A stretch of 64,000 bases of DNA from a virus (taxonomy: Duplodnaviria; Caudoviricetes), in the IMG/VR virus record IMGVR_UViG_3300032038_000068, positions 4,477 to 68,476 of that record; one strand, given 5' to 3'. The notes under the pieces are model-generated. The model searched no databases, had not been told where the DNA came from, and saw only the letters and a list, made by a program, of their open reading frames with translations. Position numbers and translations under genes: made by a program. Every line of letters starts with the position of its first letter. Positions within the stretch are counted from its first letter, which is position 1. This document shows, in pieces, positions 9,748 to 64,000 of this stretch.

Positions 9748-10233
9748 ATGGAAGTATTACTTGCTTTATTATCGTTTATGGTTGCAGGATGTTATATCGG
9801 ACATTTCTGCATCGTGAAGAAGGGTGCGCCCGAGTCTATCAGTTCGCTTGTCTATGGGATGCAACACAAGTGGCTGTGGAGTGTATGGATTGTTGCAGTG
9901 GGTATGCTGCTGTTCCCTCGGCTGATGACCAAGATGCCTGAGATGTGGCAGTTCGTTGGTTTTTTGATGATCCTCGCACTTATCGGTACTGCACTCACTC
10001 CTTTGTTTGTTACTGAGAAGAGAACGGCTCATTACATCATCGGCAGCATTCTCGGCTTGCTTGTACTGGCTTGTGTGTATATCATCTCTCCGTGGTGGCT
10101 GTTGGTACTAATCCCCGTAGTTCCATTGACGGGAATGTCTATGTCGGATGATTGTCCCCAGTGGCTTGACGGAAAGATTCTCTTCTTTGCCGAATTAGCC
10201 TGTTTAATCGCTCTCTACGGCTCTCTGATATGA
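9748..10233 (+). CDS. Multi-pass membrane protein
   Basis: 161 aa, about six hydrophobic segments. Confidence 0.75.
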   Translation: MEVLLALLSFMVAGCYIGHFCIVKKGAPESISSLVYGMQHKWLWSVWIVAVGMLLFPRLMTKMPEMWQFVGFLMILALIGTALTPLFVTEKRTAHYIIGSILGLLVLACVYIISPWWLLVLIPVVPLTGMSMSDDCPQWLDGKILFFAELACLIALYGSLI

Positions 10234-10700
10234 AAAAGGTATTACCATGCCTCCTGTGCCTTTTGACAGGCGCAGCGATAGGTTATTTCAGCCACAGGAC
10301 ACCGAAGGTCAATACGGTCATCAAGACGAAGACCGATACCTTGGTAGTTGAGCATACCGACACCATGCCGATAGTCAAGACGGAGAAGGTGTTGAAGTAT
10401 GTCTATGTGGGTGGTGATACTATCTACGGGAGCGATACTATTATCGTGCGTGACTCTATTCCTGTTCCGATAACGCAGGAGGAATATCAGGACTCTCTCT
10501 ATCACGCATGGGTGAGCGGTTATCTGCCGAACCTCGACTCTATCAAGGTTAAAGAGCGCATCGTCACGAACACCGTAACCATTACCAATACAATCAAGCG
10601 TAAGTGGAACATCGGTGTGACGGGTGGTTACGGCTACGGATTCGTAAGTGGAAAGATTGAACCATTCGTAGGAATTGGTATTAACTATAATTTGAGATAA
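10230..10700 (+). CDS. Spanin-like lysis accessory protein (DUF6808-like)
   Basis: N-terminal hydrophobic anchor, DT/DS-rich middle, C-terminal amphipathic beta strands (WNIGVTGGYGY...GIGINYNL); last gene of the late operon. Confidence 0.5.
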   Translation: MKKVLPCLLCLLTGAAIGYFSHRTPKVNTVIKTKTDTLVVEHTDTMPIVKTEKVLKYVYVGGDTIYGSDTIIVRDSIPVPITQEEYQDSLYHAWVSGYLPNLDSIKVKERIVTNTVTITNTIKRKWNIGVTGGYGYGFVSGKIEPFVGIGINYNLR

Positions 10701-10830
10701 TAGTTACTTTATGTTTTCATAAGTTAGTTTTTCAATGAGAATCCAGTCCACAGCGGTGGCTATTTTGTTAGTTATTAAAGATTTGGTTTTTTCATGGTTT
10801 TATTAGAAATTGTTAGTAGATTTTTGATTT

Positions 10831-10860
10831 CAGCCTGTCCGTGAGGGATGGGCTGTTTTT
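10831..10860 (+). terminator. Intrinsic terminator of late/lysis operon
   Basis: CAGCCTGTCC-GTGA-GGGATGGGCTG hairpin followed by TTTTT. Confidence 0.8.
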
Positions 10861-10864
10861 CAAT

Positions 10865-10896
10865 AAAAAATGGAGTCCGTCAAGACTCCACCTTTT
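10865..10896 (-). terminator. Intrinsic (possibly bidirectional) terminator of the leftward early operon
   Basis: AAAAAA-TGGAGTC-CGTCAA-GACTCCA-CCTTTT. Confidence 0.75.
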
Positions 10897-11015
10897 CACT
10901 TATCAGCGTACCTAAACAGGAATCCGCAGTGCGGACACCTATACACCTCTCCTTCCTCGTCCAATGCCTTTGCAATGTCGAGTTTAACTTCGTTGTTACA
11001 TTTCACGCATTTCAT
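10896..11015 (-). CDS. 39-aa zinc-ribbon protein (MKCVKC...CPHCG)
   Basis: Hand translation; two CxxC motifs; too short for the ORF track. Confidence 0.7.
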   Translation of the reverse strand: MKCVKCNNEVKLDIAKALDEEGEVYRCPHCGFLFRYADK

Positions 11016-21573: not shown

Positions 21574-22389
21574 TTAATCGTTTTGATTTATTGTATATTT
21601 AATCATTGCATTGTAAACTTTTGAAGGTATTTTACCAGAGCGATAATATTGTTCAGCTACACTCTTAATACGATTCTCCTTGTAAGTCTTGTATGCCGAG
21701 AATGCCTCGGATGCAGTTGGGTAATTACCAAGGTATTTATAAGACAATCCGTCTCTACAATAAGCAGAAAACCTCTTTCTATTTCTTGCAACACCTATTG
21801 GCAGGACACCCCTTGAATTCTTAGAAGAACAGAACAATGAATTGATTTGTTTAGGTACAAAAACACATGTTTCAGGGCTGTAAATCTTATTCCCCTTTAC
21901 CAAGATGTCCTTATCCAACTCATATCCATCTTTATAGTAACTCTCAGGACTATCAAACCATTCCTTGAAATTCGAGAAATAGAGCCATTCTTCACACACA
22001 GAACATCCAATATAAGAAGGACCGTTATTTTGGTAGCTGACACTATAACATCTCTTTATCATTGAGTTCCATACTACATATGATGGGATAACACACCCGT
22101 CAACACATATTGGCAAATCGTAATCGTTAACACCTACACCGCAAATAGGCTTCCTGTTGTTATATGACGCAACACCCCTTTTGGAAGAAATCGTCTTCTC
22201 ACTACCACACTCAATGCATCCTTTGCCACACAGGTGATCTCTTGGAGTTTGTTCAAAAACACCATGTTTGGCGCACATTATGCGAACCTTCGTCCTGTTG
22301 TTCACATAAGTAACAGTATCGTAGCTGTATTTGTCTCCATGGACAATCCGAGCCTTTTCTATGAAGTCTTCTAATGACAATCTCTTCAT
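21574..22389 (-). CDS. HNH-type homing endonuclease with DUF723-like N-terminal domain
   Basis: FIEKARIVHGDKYSY..KV.I.C..HG.F.QTP..HL.G.GC; W..M..RC..Y.GCSVC.EW..FSNF..W; LDKDIL. Confidence 0.8.
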   Translation of the reverse strand: MKRLSLEDFIEKARIVHGDKYSYDTVTYVNNRTKVRIMCAKHGVFEQTPRDHLCGKGCIECGSEKTISSKRGVASYNNRKPICGVGVNDYDLPICVDGCVIPSYVVWNSMIKRCYSVSYQNNGPSYIGCSVCEEWLYFSNFKEWFDSPESYYKDGYELDKDILVKGNKIYSPETCVFVPKQINSLFCSSKNSRGVLPIGVARNRKRFSAYCRDGLSYKYLGNYPTASEAFSAYKTYKENRIKSVAEQYYRSGKIPSKVYNAMIKYTINQND

Positions 22390-22567: not shown

Positions 22568-22582
22568 ATTCAATCTGCTTTT

Positions 22583-22614
22583 AAAAAGAACAGCCGGGCT
22601 TCGCAGCAGGGCTG
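22583..22614 (-). terminator. Intrinsic terminator within the early-left operon
   Basis: Minus strand CAGCCCTGCT-GCGA-AGCCCGGCTG followed by TTCTTTTT. Confidence 0.65.
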
Positions 22615-22711
22615 CATAATCAAAACTAACCAAAAGAAAAAAATCTAATCCACGCTTGGATGTAGCGAAAAAATGAGCTTAACAATTAAAATATATCATA
22701 AAGTACACACA

Positions 22712-24778: not shown

Positions 24779-25447
24779 ATGAGTAATAGTATGGGTTTTG
24801 AGGACAGCAGTATGCGTGAACGCATCATAAAGCTGATACACCGTGAAGGTATATCGCAGAGGGAATTTGCCAATAGGATTGGCAGAAGACCGCCTAATTT
24901 ATCAAAGATACTCAATGGAGAGCTTAACATACCGAGAGGTCTTGCCAATGAGATACTGAAGGTGTTCCCGAATCTTAACCGTGACTGGCTGATGTTCGGT
25001 GAGGGTTCTATGTACGATGAGAAGGATGATGCCGTTGTCCAATCAATAAGCACCCGCCCGAGGTTGCCTAAGAACCTTTCGGGAGGTGATGTTGAAGAGT
25101 ACTACAAGGGTTCCAAGAGGTCTATGTGTCAGGAGAAACCGATTATCACGCAGTTTTCCGACTACGACTTCAGTATCATACTGAAAAACGACCGTATGCT
25201 TCCGACATACCGTCCGAGTGATGAACTGTTCTTCAAGGCATCGGATATTTACGAATGGGGTAACGACTACTTGTTGGACACCAAGGAGGGACCGAAGTTT
25301 AAGAAGGTCTATCCGTACACCGACAATAAAGGTCGGGAATGTTTCCGTTGTGTATCCTACAACAAAGAGAAATACCCTGATTTCACAATACCCAGGGACA
25401 TTGTTCTTGGTCACTACCGTCTTGTCGGTGTGTTGCGAATACTATAA
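24779..25447 (+). CDS. cI: CI-like repressor (XRE HTH + S24-like domain)
   Basis: ISQREFANRIG...LSKILNG HTH, WLMFGEGSM linker, C-terminal S24-like fold; start ATG 24779. Confidence 0.85.
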   Translation: MSNSMGFEDSSMRERIIKLIHREGISQREFANRIGRRPPNLSKILNGELNIPRGLANEILKVFPNLNRDWLMFGEGSMYDEKDDAVVQSISTRPRLPKNLSGGDVEEYYKGSKRSMCQEKPIITQFSDYDFSIILKNDRMLPTYRPSDELFFKASDIYEWGNDYLLDTKEGPKFKKVYPYTDNKGRECFRCVSYNKEKYPDFTIPRDIVLGHYRLVGVLRIL

Positions 25448-26492: not shown

Positions 26493-27671
26493 ATGAAAAT
26501 ACCTACAATTAACTATGTATACGACCGCAGGCATGTTGCGAATAGTGACAGGAAAGGCAATGTCGACATGGTCATAACGTACAACCGGGAGAGGAAGTAC
26601 ATCTCCACGGGTGTGCAATGCCTTCCACACCAATGGACTGGTGACAGGAAGGGGAACGTGTATGTAAAAGGTACGGGAGCCGATGTGGAGATGAACCAGA
26701 TACTCCTTACGATGTACCAGAAGGCATACAAGATCATCTCAGGGATGGTTGATAGCGGGAACGTGGACATCAGTGCCATCCCTACCCTACTCAAGGCTCA
26801 GAACGTGGATATGACGTTCCTAGACTACATCAGGAAGAGGATGGAAGAGAGGAACGTGACGGAACACACGCACAGGTCGTATGTGACGATGTACAACAAG
26901 GTGTATGAGTTCGGGAAGATACGTTTCTTCTCCGATGTCACGCAGAAGAACATCCGTGACCTTTCCGAATGGCTGCACTCCTACTCATGGACTGAGAAGG
27001 ACAAGTTCGGCAATGATGTCAGGAAGACGTATTCCCAGGCATCGATTTACAAGATAACAAGTAACCTCTCGGTGTTCATATCCGATGCCGTTGTAGACGG
27101 ATACCTGAAAGAGAACCCATATGTGTCCAAGAGAATGAACGAAGACAAGGGTAAAACGCGGATAGACGAGTTCCTGACGGCTGAACAGGTAGGGATGATA
27201 GAAAATGCCACCATGCCTACGCAAAGCCTTTCAGAGGCGCGTGACCTTTTCCTCGTCCAGTGCTACACGGGTCTTGCCTATGTCGATTTGATGTCGTACG
27301 ACTTCACGATACACAAAGGAGGCAAGGACAAGGAGCTGTGTACTGGCATCCGTCACAAGACTGGTGTGGAATTCCACTTCGTTATGACCAACAAGTGCCG
27401 TAGCCTTCTTAAGAGGTACAAATACGTCCTTCCCAAGCTGCCAAACCAGAAATACAACGTAAAACTGAAGATGGTGGCCGATGCCGCAAAACTCGACATC
27501 AGCCTGACATCGCACATGGGAAGGAGGACTGCGGGATCGCTATGGCTGAACTCGGGCATCCCCATGGAGGTGGTGTCGAAGTGCCTCGGTCACAGTTCCG
27601 TGTCTATGACGCAGAGGGCATATGCCAAGGTACTCGACAAGACCATCATAGAGGCATTTAAGAAGCTATAG
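26493..27671 (+). CDS. int: Tyrosine integrase with N-terminal arm-binding domain
   Basis: Arm-binding N-terminus (RKYISTGV), TSHMGRRT, LGHSS..MTQ..Y; adjacent attP. Confidence 0.9.
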   Translation: MKIPTINYVYDRRHVANSDRKGNVDMVITYNRERKYISTGVQCLPHQWTGDRKGNVYVKGTGADVEMNQILLTMYQKAYKIISGMVDSGNVDISAIPTLLKAQNVDMTFLDYIRKRMEERNVTEHTHRSYVTMYNKVYEFGKIRFFSDVTQKNIRDLSEWLHSYSWTEKDKFGNDVRKTYSQASIYKITSNLSVFISDAVVDGYLKENPYVSKRMNEDKGKTRIDEFLTAEQVGMIENATMPTQSLSEARDLFLVQCYTGLAYVDLMSYDFTIHKGGKDKELCTGIRHKTGVEFHFVMTNKCRSLLKRYKYVLPKLPNQKYNVKLKMVADAAKLDISLTSHMGRRTAGSLWLNSGIPMEVVSKCLGHSSVSMTQRAYAKVLDKTIIEAFKKL

Positions 27672-29362: not shown

Positions 29363-30112
29363 TCATTTTTTACCATCTAATAATATACCATACCAATAGC
29401 GGTTCTCCGTATAGGTGTTGGCAAGAACTTTATAACCGTGGTTCTTAGTCGTGAAAGTATAACCTTCAACGAACATACATCGTACATTCGGAAGGAACTG
29501 GCTGAGAAAACGTGTTGTCTTCCTGCACCAATTCAATTTTACTGCGAATTTCACGATTTCCTCCGCTGTTCTTGCACAATAACCCAGTTTCTTCGCTATC
29601 GTTTTGTAGGAAAGTCCGTATTCCTTGTACCTGAACACACCATCAGCATCTCTTCGGGCATAATACTCGCTGAGTTTTCTTGCCTTCTTGTAGTCCTCTC
29701 CGTTTTTCGGATCGGTGGCAGTCCGTAGTAATCGCTCGATGAAACGCTTGTGGCTGTTCAGGATAAGGAATAGCAGACTTCTGAGTGTCTTGTACATCAT
29801 CTTGAATGTGTTGTAGTTGAGTTTGTCTACATCGACATTCCTGTGATGCGTTTTTGACGCGAGTCGCTTTATCACCAGGATATCTCCCTTTGAACCACAC
29901 CACTCTACAAGCTGCATACTCTCCCAAATGGGAATGTACTTCTTGATCGTGGATGGCGATGTTCCTGATAATGCGGCTATCCTGTTCATTGATGCGCCCT
30001 TTATGGAAGATGTACGACCGATGCGTGATTTCAGCAACAGGAGCAACGAGACAGCCTTTTGTGCCGTCTTGTCACCCATAATGCCAACCAGTATCGTCCT
30101 TCTTATCTTCAT
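29363..30112 (-). CDS. Putative HTH replication initiator (Rep-like)
   Basis: Two HTH-like segments (IAALSGTSPSTIKKY; LSYKTIAKKLGYCARTA); own promoter and structured leader; start ATG 30112. Confidence 0.45.
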   Translation of the reverse strand: MKIRRTILVGIMGDKTAQKAVSLLLLLKSRIGRTSSIKGASMNRIAALSGTSPSTIKKYIPIWESMQLVEWCGSKGDILVIKRLASKTHHRNVDVDKLNYNTFKMMYKTLRSLLFLILNSHKRFIERLLRTATDPKNGEDYKKARKLSEYYARRDADGVFRYKEYGLSYKTIAKKLGYCARTAEEIVKFAVKLNWCRKTTRFLSQFLPNVRCMFVEGYTFTTKNHGYKVLANTYTENRYWYGILLDGKK

Positions 30113-30123
30113 AAAGTAAACAC

Positions 30124-35379: not shown

Positions 35380-36060
35380 GTGTGTGTGGAGTGATCAGGT
35401 ACACCCGGACACCCTGAAACACCCCCACAAAAACACACCCCCACCCCCTATTATGATATATAAACCCCAGTATCGTCCCCTCTCAAAATTTTTTCTTTTT
35501 TATTTTTCCAAAAATTTTTTCCCAAATTTTTTTGCTCAAAAATTTTCTCCTTTATATCTTTATTTGGTTTTATATATTTATGGTGGTTTATACCCCTTTT
35601 CCTACCTTCTTTTCCTTCCTTCTCCCCAGATTTTGTTCATTTTGTTATTTTGTTGTTTCAGTAATTTTTATTGATTGTGGTTATTTTAAATGTTAAATTT
35701 CGGTAGTTTTTTGTTAATTGTTTAGTAATTAACCTTTATATAGGATAGTTATTATGCTGTTAACATAATTTAGTGTATATATAATATTATAATATATTAT
35801 AATTTATAAAATTATATAAATATATATATTATATAGTTAAAAATATATAAATAATATAGTGTGTATATAGTAGTAGATAAGTTAGTTTATGTTTAAAAAT
35901 AAGTTTGGGTATTGAGGCTATGTTTTTTGCTGAAGTTGATTATTGATAGATAGGGATTATTTTGTGGTTTTGTGTTGTCTTAAATCGTCTTTTGAGGCTG
36001 TTTAGGTGGTGTTTTGAGGCTGTATAGAGGCTGTATTTGGTGTTGTTTTATGGATTTGGA
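35380..36060. other. Non-coding low-complexity region with strand-skew switch (candidate pac / genome end)
   Basis: A/C-rich CCCCC tracts to about 35480, then A5-6/T5-7 tracts, a nearly pure AT stretch (about 35770-35870), then G/T-rich DNA. Confidence 0.5.
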
Positions 36061-59752: not shown

Positions 59753-59780
59753 AAATATTTAGAAAATATAAGCCAAAAAA

Positions 59781-59811
59781 TTTGCATAAAAGGAGAATTA
59801 GTTTATTTTTG
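59781..59811 (+). promoter_or_regulatory. Promoter of tail tip gene
   Basis: TTTG 59781-59784, 19 nt spacer, TATTTTTG 59804-59811. Confidence 0.65.
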
Positions 59812-59834
59812 CAACGTAATCAGGATAACGGGAC

Positions 59835-62800
59835 ATGGCATACACGATATACGACAAGAACGGAAACGAGCGGCTTGCGGTAATTGAAGCATCATTGCAG
59901 CCGAATGCGGGAAGGTTCGTTGAACCCCAACTGGAGTACAACGGCACTTGGATGGGCGAATGTTTTGTTACGCTCAACATCAAGTCTCCCGTACCGATAA
60001 TATTCGCTATCGGTGACTATGTCATGTACCGTGGTGAGAAGTTCGTCATCAACTACGATCCAAGCGTTATCAAGAAGGCCACCAAGAAGTCAACGGGTGA
60101 TGCCTTCTGCTATGACAACGTGAAGTTCTCTGCTTTGTCGTATGAGTTGTCGGACATCCGTATGCTTGATTATGTGGAAGGCGACAACAATATGCACTAT
60201 GTCGGCCTTCCCGTGTTCTCATTCTTCTGCAATGACATAGACGACTTTGCAGACCGCTTGCAGGTCAATACGGACCGCTACTGCGAAAAGAACGGTATTA
60301 CCGATGGATACAAGTGGATATTCGTCACTCCGAGTTCGTCAAGGTCCGCGTCACGGGCTGGCGGTGCATCTGGACGTGCAGAGGAGGCATACGGAGACAC
60401 GTTCGGGAAGTACGGTCCTTGGGTTGACAATGAGAAGAACAATCAGAACATCAGCATCGACAACATGAGCGTGTGGGATGCGATGAAGTACATCAAGGAC
60501 AGCTTTGGTCTGAACTTCGTCATAAGGGGTCGCGTTGTCATCATAGGTGCGGCAGGTATGCCGACAAAGGACGTGTTTGCATACGGAAAAGGTAACGGTC
60601 TCTACGAGATTGAGCGGGTAGCAGATACCGAACAGCAGATTGTGACAAAGCTGTATTCATACGGTTCCGACAAGAATATGCCCGAAAGGTATTATGCCAA
60701 CGTGGATAACAGCGACCTTCCCAACAACCTTGCGGTAGGTTTCCTTATGATGCCTGGGTTCCCTACGCAGTCTCTATATCAATGGGTGAAGACCCATCAG
60801 GGAACGAACTGCAACGACAGCACGGGTTATGCTACATGGCATGGTTATTCGGCATACTTCTCTAAGGATGCCCATCTTCCTTATGTCATGTCGGCAAATG
60901 CCTATGAATATGGTGTAAGGGAAGCAACGAAGTATTTCAATGGTTCTGACGGTACGGAAGAGATTTATCCAACAATCGAGAACTCGGGAATAGATACCGT
61001 ATATGATGCAGAGGTGATAGAGGACAGCGGTGTGTTTGCAGAAGGCGATACCGTTCCCGACTTCACCATTACACTGCCGAACCTCGGTTTCGACCTTGCT
61101 TCCCTCATAAAGAACGAGAGCGCAATAGCGATGAAGGATGGCCCCTGCGGTGGGCGTGAGTTCAACATCGTTTCAGCGACGCAGGACGAGAACAACCGAT
61201 GGGTTGTCACATGCAACAGGACGAAGGACGATTCACTTGGCCTGTACTTCCCATACTCATACGCAGCATCCACTGGCGGTACGCCATCGGCAAACGAGGT
61301 GTATCAGATAAAGCCTGGAAGCAAGTATGTGCTTATCGGTATCGAGATGCCTTCAACCTATGTTGAGATGGCCTCCGCGAAGTTGTTGGAGAATGCCCTT
61401 GCATTCCTGTTCAAGAACGACAGCCCGAGATACACATATATTCCGAAGGTTGATGAGGTTTTCATGGCTCGTCAGGCGCAGGAAGCTGTCGTTTCGGAAG
61501 GTGATGCCTATCATGACATCCTGAAAGAAGGTGACGTGATGGTGTTCGAGGACACCGATTTGACGATCGACGATGCCGTATGTATCGACACCTTGCGCAT
61601 CAAGGAGTACGGCAATCAGCAGATACCTACCTATGAGATTACATTGCGTAACGAGAAACAGGTAGGTACTATCCAACGAATCCAGGAGCAGATAGGAAAG
61701 ATTACCTCGGGCGAGACATCCGTTGGCGGTGGTGGCGGTTCAAGTGTAAACGTCGGTGTCGTAAGGGGTCTTATAGAGACCTACGGCGCGAACTACTTCC
61801 TAAGAAGGAACACCGATGAGTCCACTGCCGCATGGCTGCGATTCCTCGCCAATGGAGGCGTCAGGTTCGGAGACACGAACCAGTGGTACATAAACCATAA
61901 CGGCGAGGCTGTCCTTAATTCACTGAACGTAGATAACCTCAATGCCCTCAATGCTCACTTTGCTCAGTTAATCATTGACGAGATAAAGAGCGTTGGCGGT
62001 ATGGTTATTTTGACACCTGCTAATGCAAAGGTATATGCCGTACAGGTTAGAAGCAGTTCCATTACAAGGCTGTACTTCAAGGCATACGATGGAGAGCGGC
62101 GCGTCTATCAGTCTTTCATCACGAAGGACCAGGTACTTTGTGCAACGTTCAATACCGCAGGACTTGACGGTAGCGGGAACTACAATGTCAGCAACAAGTT
62201 CTATTGGACGACGGTATATAACGTATCGTCAGAGCCTGTTGAATACGAAGGAGCCTTGTGTCATTGGATAGGCGTGTACAGCAGTTCGGCCACATACACA
62301 AGGGGCGTGTTCAATCCTGAGGCTGGGGATGAGATTACCCTTCTCGGTAACAGCGGTACGAGCGATGCGCAGAAGGCACGAAGGAACGCCATCGTCATGT
62401 CGGCATACGATATAGACTTCCTTGACACGGGTTATGGTGTGGAAGGTGATGCGGACTACGTTCCCAAGCTGAAAGCACCGTTCTTCGTGCAGTACGCAGG
62501 CATCAATGACTTTACTCTCTATAACAAGCGAGTGAACGTAATGTCGTTCGGACTTAACCAGTTCAAGGGTAAGTTCATCGCATCGGGTGGTGACGACCTG
62601 GAAAGCATGTTCAATGACGTGCAGAAAGGTATCAAGCCGTGGACGCATCAGGTGTGGGCTGACAGTATTACCGAGGTAAAGAGCGGCAATACAAGGACGG
62701 GATGGACTATCAGCGGTTTCTCGAAGATATACAAGTCAACAAGCCGTTGGTTCTGTTTATATACTGACTATACGGAAGGTGAGAGCCACATTGAAGAGAG

Positions 62801-64000
62801 CTTGTTCACGGGCGCAGATGTCACTTGGATGCCGTTTAATACAACAATTAACGGTGTTGTATATAAATACCTTCTGACACAAAGCGACACGCAGCCTTCC
62901 GATAATGACTTCAACACAAACGGATGGGACACGACAGCAGGTCATCCGATGACTAAGGGTTGGTACTTGTGGACCCGCGAGACCATCACATACGGAAACG
63001 GCACTGTTGTAAGCACCTATACCCCTGCCCGTATAGGCGATGATGGTGCGACAGGGCAAGAGGGCGTTTCCTCTTATCTGCATATCGCATATTCAACATC
63101 GGCAGACGGAAGTGAGAACTTCTCTACGACCTCTTTTGACGGTGCTGCATACATCGGAATATGCAGGGATGAAGACCCTGACGACCCGTTAGGTGCAACA
63201 GCATACACTCAATATTCTTGGTCAAGGTTCCTCGGCAACGACGGTCAGGACGGAGAAGACGGTCTTGACGGACTGTCTGCGCCACCTTCATATATAGAGA
63301 ATAAGGTAAGCCACTATCTCGCTTGGAATGCAAGCAGTGGCGTTACAAAGAGTACAGGCACATGGAGTACGTCTTACCCTGATACTACTGGAGCGAACCG
63401 TTTCCTGTGGCAGTACGACTCGTTTACATATACTGTCAACGAGGGTGTGAAGAACCTGTTGCTTGATTCTAAGAACCAGTTCAACTACTATCAGCAGAAC
63501 AACAACTATATTGCAAAGATAAAGTTGTCGGAGAACCTTGTAAACGGCAACACCTACTCACTTGTATTCAGGGCGGAGGACTTATCTGAGTTCGGAATCA
63601 CGCATTGCAACTTTGACGTTTATCTTACTACCGCATGGATTGCTCCAGGAAAGTCATCCTCTTCAAGGCACATTTCTCAGGCTACGAGGATAATGCAGCA
63701 GGCAGACGGAACATGCAGGGTGACGTTCACGGCTGTTACTCCCGATGATACAAACAAGCAGCTTGCCATCTATGTACAAGGCATAGGCATGTCGGAAGAC
63801 GTACCAGAGGTCTATTGGGCTATGCTTACCGAAGGGGCTGTAATGCACCAATGGGCGGCTGCACCCGAAGACTTGGCATACGAAACCGATGTCGCATTGG
63901 TCGGTTCGTCTGGCAGGGGTATAACAAGGATTGATGAGCAGTACGCACAAGGTACGAGCGGCACTACGGCACCTTCTTCTGGATGGACTACGAATCTTCT
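59835..64000 (+). CDS. Tail tip (Tal-like hub) fused to fibre modules, 3'-truncated by the window edge
   Basis: Hand translation MAYTIYDKNG..LEYNGTWMGECFVT..; no stop-terminated ORF is listed for this frame, so it runs off the end; C-terminal part has YLW..TY, LHIAYS.SADG and NLLLDSKNQ modules like the ORF at 2-4663. Confidence 0.8.
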   Translation, partial: MAYTIYDKNGNERLAVIEASLQPNAGRFVEPQLEYNGTWMGECFVTLNIKSPVPIIFAIGDYVMYRGEKFVINYDPSVIKKATKKSTGDAFCYDNVKFSALSYELSDIRMLDYVEGDNNMHYVGLPVFSFFCNDIDDFADRLQVNTDRYCEKNGITDGYKWIFVTPSSSRSASRAGGASGRAEEAYGDTFGKYGPWVDNEKNNQNISIDNMSVWDAMKYIKDSFGLNFVIRGRVVIIGAAGMPTKDVFAYGKGNGLYEIERVADTEQQIVTKLYSYGSDKNMPERYYANVDNSDLPNNLAVGFLMMPGFPTQSLYQWVKTHQGTNCNDSTGYATWHGYSAYFSKDAHLPYVMSANAYEYGVREATKYFNGSDGTEEIYPTIENSGIDTVYDAEVIEDSGVFAEGDTVPDFTITLPNLGFDLASLIKNESAIAMKDGPCGGREFNIVSATQDENNRWVVTCNRTKDDSLGLYFPYSYAASTGGTPSANEVYQIKPGSKYVLIGIEMPSTYVEMASAKLLENALAFLFKNDSPRYTYIPKVDEVFMARQAQEAVVSEGDAYHDILKEGDVMVFEDTDLTIDDAVCIDTLRIKEYGNQQIPTYEITLRNEKQVGTIQRIQEQIGKITSGETSVGGGGGSSVNVGVVRGLIETYGANYFLRRNTDESTAAWLRFLANGGVRFGDTNQWYINHNGEAVLNSLNVDNLNALNAHFAQLIIDEIKSVGGMVILTPANAKVYAVQVRSSSITRLYFKAYDGERRVYQSFITKDQVLCATFNTAGLDGSGNYNVSNKFYWTTVYNVSSEPVEYEGALCHWIGVYSSSATYTRGVFNPEAGDEITLLGNSGTSDAQKARRNAIVMSAYDIDFLDTGYGVEGDADYVPKLKAPFFVQYAGINDFTLYNKRVNVMSFGLNQFKGKFIASGGDDLESMFNDVQKGIKPWTHQVWADSITEVKSGNTRTGWTISGFSKIYKSTSRWFCLYTDYTEGESHIEESLFTGADVTWMPFNTTINGVVYKYLLTQSDTQPSDNDFNTNGWDTTAGHPMTKGWYLWTRETITYGNGTVVSTYTPARIGDDGATGQEGVSSYLHIAYSTSADGSENFSTTSFDGAAYIGICRDEDPDDPLGATAYTQYSWSRFLGNDGQDGEDGLDGLSAPPSYIENKVSHYLAWNASSGVTKSTGTWSTSYPDTTGANRFLWQYDSFTYTVNEGVKNLLLDSKNQFNYYQQNNNYIAKIKLSENLVNGNTYSLVFRAEDLSEFGITHCNFDVYLTTAWIAPGKSSSSRHISQATRIMQQADGTCRVTFTAVTPDDTNKQLAIYVQGIGMSEDVPEVYWAMLTEGAVMHQWAAAPEDLAYETDVALVGSSGRGITRIDEQYAQGTSGTTAPSSGWTTNL

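Follow-up and report, generated by a model that had tools for sequence, protein, structure and literature searches.

The spacer that closes the late operon of this phage raises two questions: what kind of element it holds, and whether a second spacer at 22.6 kb is its twin, as was proposed in a first description of the DNA made from its letters alone (here, the sequence-only reading). The window, i.e., the whole stretch of 64,000 nucleotides that was analyzed, comprises bases 4477-68476 of a 68.5-kb IMG/VR virus record, and the phage is of temperate Bacteroidales type, judged by gene content. Its plus strand carries the structural and tail genes, with a lysis cassette at their end, and the long minus-strand early operon contains HU-like, RecT, exonuclease, methyltransferase and several HNH endonuclease genes. 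The first spacer, element A, occupies the convergent gap between the DUF6808 gene (stop codon at 10698-10700, plus strand) and a 37-amino-acid (aa) Zn-ribbon open reading frame (ORF) on the minus strand, which ends at 10900. The genes and the terminator that define this setting are as follows.

10230-10700, plus strand: last late gene, encoding a DUF6808 protein (Pfam PF20647, 9.2e-25), at the end of the lysis cassette
10871-10890, minus strand: intrinsic terminator of the convergent early operon, GGAGTC..GACTCC then ATTTTTT (terminator scan)
24779-25447, plus strand: CI-like repressor gene, facing the long minus-strand early operon
26493-27671, plus strand: integrase gene, facing the same operon

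The gap holds two terminators, one at 10831-10855 on the plus strand and the other at 10871-10890 on the minus strand; the latter lies outside the RNA element. In a relative (L088), the DUF6808 gene comes after holin-like and amidase genes, and prophages with a DUF6808 gene were found in Muribaculaceae, Prevotella, Bacteroides and Parabacteroides. Elsewhere in the window, the ∼4.2 kb at the contig end after an 1869-aa gene (59753-64000) contain only short ORFs (≤139 aa) on both strands, an ORF-poor stretch that is unusual for a late region.

Element A was divided into two units, named here with reference to the FopS and GibS small RNA (sRNA) families discussed below. All motifs listed by the sequence-only reading are present at their positions, in A on the plus strand and in the second spacer, element B, on the minus strand. 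The parts of A, all on the plus strand, are as follows.

10705-10713, plus strand: TACTTTATG, with the minigene ATG TTT TCA TAA
10711-10727, plus strand: seed-like motif of unit 1, AUGUUUUCAUAAGUUAG, which includes the minigene ATG (read directly from the sequence)
10723 and 10767, plus strand: GTTAGTT, with GTTAGTA at 10812
10748-10759, plus strand: AGCG-tetraloop hairpin CCAC-AGCG-GTGG, extendable to AG(U)CCAC/GUGGCU at 10745-10761
10767-10783, plus strand: linker GTTAGTTATTAAAGATT, which matches the FopS body motif GTTAGTAAAGATT
10786-10862, plus strand: unit 2, FopS-like sRNA body (seed, GUUAGUAGAUU, terminator and U tract)
10786-10807, plus strand: seed of unit 2, GUUUUUUCAUGGU(uuu)AUUAGA; the blocks of the unit are UUUUUCAUG and AUUAGA, plus the terminator
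10822, plus strand: TTTTGATT
10831-10855, plus strand: terminator stem CAGCCTGTCC-GTGAG-GGATGGGCTG, then TTTTT (U tract, 10856-10860)

The extended hairpin, AG(U)CCAC-AGCG-GUGGCU, is followed by CUAUUUUG. At 10831-10860, 10 pairs, 6 of them GC, run directly into the U tract, as in an intrinsic terminator. Unit 2 folds with a z of −4.2 and leaves the six bases at the start of its seed unpaired.

Conservation was assessed in relatives, i.e., DNA downstream of DUF6808-protein homologues in public assemblies. In three of them (L006, L087 and L089), with DUF6808 proteins 59-62% identical, the spacer can still be aligned in blocks, at an identity of 0.71-0.76 versus 0.37-0.39 for codon third positions of the adjacent gene. 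In the close pair L006/L087, the spacer is substituted about as fast as synonymous sites, and phage mosaicism could therefore inflate the apparent conservation. A profile built from relatives only, with A left out, retrieves A at an E value of 6.6e-17, and UUUUUUCAUG is invariant across A, L004, L006, L087 and L089 amid varying flanking sequence.

The AGCG hairpin shows compensatory changes at 6/6 pairs, with 93% of cells paired and an invariant loop, in seven lineages, three of which were found by hunting such hairpins in the same slot, so that some ascertainment bias is present. The stems around AGCG include CCAC/GUGG, CCGA/UCGG, GCCCGA/UCGGGU, GUCGC/GUGAC and UGCUUC/GAAGCA. No shuffle or slid register came near the observed covariation (seven lineages; a second run included B), and the background rate of AGCG-loop hairpins is only ∼1.3e-5 per base. 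A coding reading was rejected: neither a 23-aa ORF at 10735 nor the minigenes nor the minus-strand ORFs are conserved in relatives, where small ORFs on both strands vary in frame and length, so that A is non-coding. The relatives' profile and the covarying hairpin uphold the view of A as a conserved, structured, non-coding, RNA-level element; the minigene noted by the sequence-only reading is present in A, but relatives do not keep it.

Searches of GenBank phages (megablast and blastn) returned no DNA similar to the A or B region, and TTTCAT[AG] after DUF6808 genes was only modestly enriched, in 14/86 sense versus 8/86 antisense cases. Several other candidates were set aside. An attP or cos site, a diversity-generating (DGR) hairpin and a CRISPR-repeat mimic had no supporting feature in A or B, and replication-origin iterons were dropped since the spacing of GTTAGT is not conserved. 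In two human-gut prophages (L029 and L030), the DUF6808 spacer has a different covarying hairpin, with a GUAGAAG loop on stems GCCACA/UGUGGC and CGCUACG/CGUAGCG, respectively; these two sequences part just past the hairpin GGGGGCU..AGCCCCC, the probable end of the prophage.

The family to which A might belong had been reported as unrecognized. FopS is a 14-member sRNA family of B. thetaiotaomicron that associates with RbpB and whose seed, the 5' 21 nt, pairs beside the start codon of susC-type mRNAs and blocks translation (PMC11697453). Nine of the 14 members are intergenic genes (RF04319), FopS-14 is derived from a 3' untranslated region (UTR), and a FopS sequence has been noted, in passing only, in one Caudovirales phage (PMC11697453). 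Rfam at gathering thresholds gave no match in the window. A permissive scan of A alone placed GibS (RF04182; 25.6 bits versus a cutoff of 115) and FopS (RF04319; 19.3 bits versus a gathering score of 56) as the top two, and the GibS alignment uses the terminator of the minus-strand operon as its second hairpin. The FopS alignment spans model positions 1-71 on unit 2, matches GU-UUUUUCAUGGU, AUUAGA, GUUAGUA, AUU and a terminator with a GUGA loop, and is the only FopS match in the whole 68-kb record (E of 0.053).

Genuine FopS copies (56-79 bits) were then taken from five Bacteroidales genomes with DUF6808 prophages. The terminator of three of them (L137, L141 and L152), GGCTGTCCGTGAyGGATGGCC, is nearly identical to that of A, AGCCTGTCCGTGAGGGATGGGCT, and other genuine copies terminate in GGAGTAC-AGCG-GTACTCC. 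In local alignment with L137, positions 10785-10866 of A gave a z of 6.1, and 0/300 dinucleotide shuffles did as well. The A-family profile, with or without A, retrieves real FopS at E values of 7e-4 to 6e-3 in 87 kb, a score much of which is due to the terminator alone; in the reverse search, an nhmmer profile of real FopS copies did not retrieve A from the window.

The seeds bear on the same relationship. Compared with the FopS R1' seed (positions 1-21, GUGUUUUUCAUgGUAUUAGAU), unit 2 is identical over an 11-nt core and matches at 17/21 positions with one insertion allowed, whereas unit 1 has only UGUUUUCAUAAGUUAG and B has no such seed. The unit 1 motif AUGUUUUCAUAAGUUAG resembles the GibS/FopS R1 seed, GUGUUUUUCAUAGUAUUAG, in comparison with Rfam consensus lines and real FopS copies, and is kept as GTTTTCATAGGTTAG in L006, L087 and L089. 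The similarity of unit 1 to FopS is not significant by itself (local alignment, z of 0.3); its best local match, to FopS copy L136, is the basis for the linker, whose FopS counterpart GTTAGTAAAGATT sits before FopS terminators.

Taken part by part, A resembles FopS in its putative U-rich, anti-start-codon 5' seed with an identical UUUUUCAUGGU core followed by AUUAGA, its GUUAGUA..GAUU body, its single 3' terminator hairpin (stem 10831-10855, GUGAG loop and U5; FopS terminators have a GNRA-type or AGCG loop), its length of ∼70-80 nt, its multicopy and tandem occurrence, its presence on phage contigs, and a place in a 3' UTR, the source of FopS-14 as well. It differs in a 3-nt insertion in the seed, six U's in place of GUGUUUUU, a rearranged and longer linker, the lack of a σABfr promoter, and direct fusion to a second, degenerate unit and a covarying AGCG hairpin within a lysis-gene 3' UTR. 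GibS shares the R1 seed with FopS, and UGUUUUCAUAAGUUAG of unit 1 resembles the GibS form GUGUUUUUCAUAGUAUUAG; unlike A, GibS is 142 nt long and has two hairpins, a second seed (R2) and its own regulated promoter. We conclude from these sequence comparisons that the 3' half of A (10786-10862) is most likely a diverged relative of the known FopS/GibS sRNAs (RF04319 and RF04182; PMC11697453). GTTAGTT, the AGCG loop and the GNRA terminator, which the sequence-only reading had listed as parts, are ordinary FopS parts.

The strongest link of A to FopS is positional. Past the DUF6808 stop codon of L167 and L254 come, with the parts in the order seen in A, GTTAGTAG, the hairpin TGCTTC-AGCG-GAAGCA, GGTTAGTAG and a canonical FopS, complete with a terminator and a seed that is exact over 27 nt; the DUF6808 protein of the viral contig L167 is only ∼35% identical. 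A further locus (L059) has a FopS match of 32.7 bits 55 nt past its DUF6808 stop codon. No DUF6808 gene was found adjoining host FopS genes.

FopS-type RNAs are common on viral contigs: the canonical seed is present on 96 in IMG/VR. Of 67 distinct canonical copies on such contigs, 49 have a TAnnTTTG promoter and 18 do not, and the promoter-less copies sit directly after stop codons or tRNA genes. Of 76 canonical FopS 3' parts, 8 have AGCG as the terminator loop, 7 have GGCG, and most of the others have a loop of GNRA type. On viral contigs L164, L166 and L244, canonical FopS seeds start a few bases past a tRNA-like 3' end (GGTTCGATTC...), with no promoter; these are either FopS RNAs cotranscribed with and cut from tRNAs or prophage attachment junctions. 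Tandem FopS arrays occur in hosts (contigs G003:C68 and G006:C7; loci L144, L148, L151, L137 and L141), with three copies within 2.3 kb in one case and two copies 490 nt apart in another, and provide a precedent for the tandem units of A.

No TAnnTTTG (σABfr) promoter lies at a FopS-like distance from unit 1, unit 2 or B, and A contains only near-matches to this box, none of them conserved in relatives. An RNA of either unit would thus have to derive from the late transcript. A short way before the AGCG hairpin, AUGAGAA (10735-10741) is conserved (AUGA-AU in relatives) and looks like a mimic of a start-codon region; predicted pairing of this motif with either UUUUCAU seed (10714-10720 and 10789-10795) could mask the seed in the unprocessed transcript.

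The supposed twin, element B, lies inside the early operon, after the HU-like gene and a 39-aa ORF, and ends ∼15 nt before the ATG (22567) of a 54-aa gene, which is followed by HNH, recT and exonuclease genes. Its parts are as follows.

22697-22711, minus strand: 5' part, GUGUGUACUUUAUG, directly after the stop codon of the 39-aa ORF
22705-22697, minus strand: TACTTTATG, a 9-mer in common with A
22645-22665, minus strand: hairpin CUA(C)AUCCA-AGCG-UGGAUUAG, then AUUUUUUUCUUUU (from sequence and fold)
22630, minus strand: GTTAGTT, with TTTTGATT at 22625
22581-22631, minus strand: 3' part, comprising GGUUAGUUUUGAUU, the terminator CAGCC..GCGA..GGCUG and UUCUUUUU

The hairpin core, ATCCA-AGCG-TGGAT, is at 22661-22648, and the terminator stem at 22614-22591 is followed by TTCTTTTT; the stretch 22614-22583, with 6+3 pairs and UUCUUUUU, has the makeup of an intrinsic terminator. 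Support for the twinship is weak. The A-family profile scores B at an E value of ∼30 and in the wrong register, the FopS covariance model gives no match on B at E ≤10, and local alignment of B with FopS has a z of ∼0. A and B have 16 7-mers in common, where shuffles have 6.2 ± 3.1 (P = 0.0065), but A has more 7-mers in common with an AT-rich, unrelated spacer (35.6-35.9 kb). AGCG-loop hairpins of ≥4 bp number 6 in the window versus 1.7 expected, and those of A and B are the sole non-coding ones. A covariance model was among the checks suggested by the sequence-only reading; the hairpin covaries in the relatives of A, and the hairpin model finds within the window only A and B, both of which had been in the model, and nothing on two related viral records.

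B is present only in near-identical phages. In the seven close relatives compared, the terminator is invariant, the fifth stem pair is A-U, G.U or G-C, and the linker is variable, including TTTTGATT (which is not conserved) and the U run. The 67% relative of the neighboring HU-like gene has a different spacer, and no homologue of B was found beside relatives of the HNH, 54-aa or RecT genes or by an exact pattern scan. The HNH endonuclease gene downstream of B (21574-22389, minus strand) is missing in close relatives L256-L262, in which the 54-aa gene is directly before recT, pointing to a recent homing-endonuclease insertion.

B carries fragments like the FopS body (UGG-AUUAGAUUU, GGUUAGU..GAUU, and AGCG and GNRA loops) and no UUUUCAU seed. 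Homology of B to A cannot be demonstrated; what the two have in common is a hairpin style and a terminator. We give rather less than an even chance to B being a degenerate, seedless relative derived from FopS. It is best taken for an internal terminator, made of two hairpins, within the early operon, and since only ∼15 nt, and no usable promoter, separate its terminator from the next start codon, B most likely attenuates transcription into the recT/exonuclease block. TAGTTTTG in B was rejected as an sRNA promoter: it is a perfect box, but the start would fall at the foot of the terminator, and there are 56 such boxes in the window.

Two other sites in the window touch on these motifs. A third exact copy of TACTTTATG (30110-30118, minus strand) is preceded by GTGTT, as in B, and contains the start codon of a 249-aa helix-turn-helix (HTH; Rep-like) gene. 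A 375-nt, AT-rich, ORF-free spacer before the RuvC/primase operon (35675-36050, plus strand) contains TTAGTTTATGTTT, close to TTACTTTATGTTT of A, and may be an origin or promoter region.

The explanation that we favor, and consider reasonably probable, is that A is a diverged FopS/GibS relative of tandem units and that B is a double-hairpin internal terminator. A would be a tandem pair of FopS-like units within the lysis-operon 3' UTR, with no promoter of its own. Unit 1 (10711-10768) would retain an R1-like seed and a shortened, AGCG-capped terminator, and unit 2 (10786-10862) would retain the R1' core UUUUUCAUGGU..AUUAGA, the GUUAGUA..GAUU body and a FopS-type terminator that doubles as the end of the late operon. 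We infer that late (lysis) transcription runs on through both units, which form the tail of its transcript, and that an endonucleolytic cut in the U-rich linker would free an sRNA of ∼80 nt. The AGCG hairpin would stay on the lysis mRNA as its protective 3' end or would act as a first, weak terminator. Once freed, the seed would base pair with host mRNAs at start regions of the AUGAAAAA type and block initiation of translation; the predicted targets are mRNAs of SusC-like outer membrane transporters, as for FopS, and host RbpB may be involved. Of the two functions offered by the sequence-only reading, a processed sRNA or a put/nut-like RNA, the former fits best on the available sequence, since TAnnTTTG is absent at the required distance and the site is in the 3' UTR of the lysis operon, and the latter found no support.

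An unlikely alternative is that A and B act purely in cis as tandem terminators, each with a weak hairpin capped by AGCG ahead of a strong one capped by GNRA, and that no trans-acting sRNA is made. A would bring the late operon to its end, B would attenuate the early operon, and both would stabilize the upstream mRNA; the likeness to FopS would reflect a common Bacteroidales terminator style and U-rich composition. Both strong hairpins are indeed textbook intrinsic terminators; once these are removed, shuffles fold as stably as A and B, and the reciprocal profile score owes most to the terminator. No targets were found in the phage, where duplex energies were no better than for shuffled A and complementarity to lysis-gene starts was ≤8 nt, and B sits just ahead of a start codon without an intervening promoter. 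Composition does not, however, explain an 11-nt identity to the FopS seed together with AUUAGA, in the right order and at the right distance from a terminator, nor the constancy of UUUUUUCAUG in five sequences whose neighboring positions vary, and in L167 this slot is taken by a canonical FopS.

A more ambitious version of the processed-sRNA reading, which we regard as somewhat less probable still, makes A a dedicated processing cassette at the end of the lysis operon in one group of Bacteroidales temperate phages, in which a FopS mimic is released by a cut at the site marked by the AGCG hairpin. The mimic would be freed late in infection, or from read-through in lysogens, and would shut off translation of host SusC-type outer membrane transporters; B would be a seed-swapped second output, from the early operon. 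Such a cassette, if real, could block superinfection via those receptors or redirect host resources.

It is improbable that A and B are decaying FopS remnants whose function is limited to terminating transcription. Promoters are missing, the unit 2 seed has an insertion, the unit 1 terminator is shortened and the seed of B is lost, all as expected of decay, but the spacer remains alignable where synonymous sites are saturated, and stems are kept by compensatory changes in the A family and, at one pair, in the relatives of B.

The possibility that the AGCG hairpin is a nut- or put-like RNA that modifies polymerase or recruits an antiterminator for read-through is very slight. Genes past the B terminator (recT, exonuclease, methylase and others) need read-through, and the hairpin, being short and constant in its loop, looks like a protein-binding site of the boxB sort; like the lambda nut and HK022 put sites, it is a small conserved-loop hairpin in a phage transcript, upstream of a terminator (in B only). 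A, however, lies at the very end of a late operon that faces a convergent operon, so that nothing would benefit from read-through. The AGCG hairpin has no boxA-like partner and no GNRA-like pentaloop, neither element has the two-stem put architecture or an Rfam match of this kind, and the hairpin is not promoter proximal, B being ∼1.9 kb past the early promoter region. The AGCG loop is also an ordinary FopS terminator loop, and the sequence from hairpin to terminator varies freely in relatives of B. Finally, it is scarcely credible that the minus strand of A is the functional one, with its two ATGAAAA sites serving as tiny-ORF starts or ribosome landing sites when early transcription passes its terminator, since, for all the A-rich context upstream of these two reverse-complement copies, the ORFs are 3-33 codons long with unconserved frame and length, FopS seeds explain the same motifs, and the orientation of AGCG to the transcribed strand is kept in B.

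Among known systems, the processed-sRNA reading of A most closely recalls the enterobacterial 3'-UTR sRNAs CpxQ and SroC, which are released from the tail of an mRNA and share its terminator; as proposed for A, they have no promoter of their own and a 5' end cut in AU-rich single-stranded RNA. The difference is that they belong to another phylum, with another RNase set and chaperone, and have no sequence relation to A, for which processing is a prediction.

FopS sRNAs are central posttranscriptional repressors of polysaccharide utilization loci in gut Bacteroides. The window and the 96 IMG/VR contigs with a canonical seed indicate that FopS-type RNAs are often carried by phages, and one phage group appears to keep a diverged, promoter-less FopS version in a fixed slot, behind a covarying hairpin in the lysis-cassette 3' UTR. 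Phage copies as diverged as this escape the Rfam FopS model. Provided that these RNAs are expressed, phages could rewire host glycan uptake or receptor display through a regulatory RNA family of the host itself.
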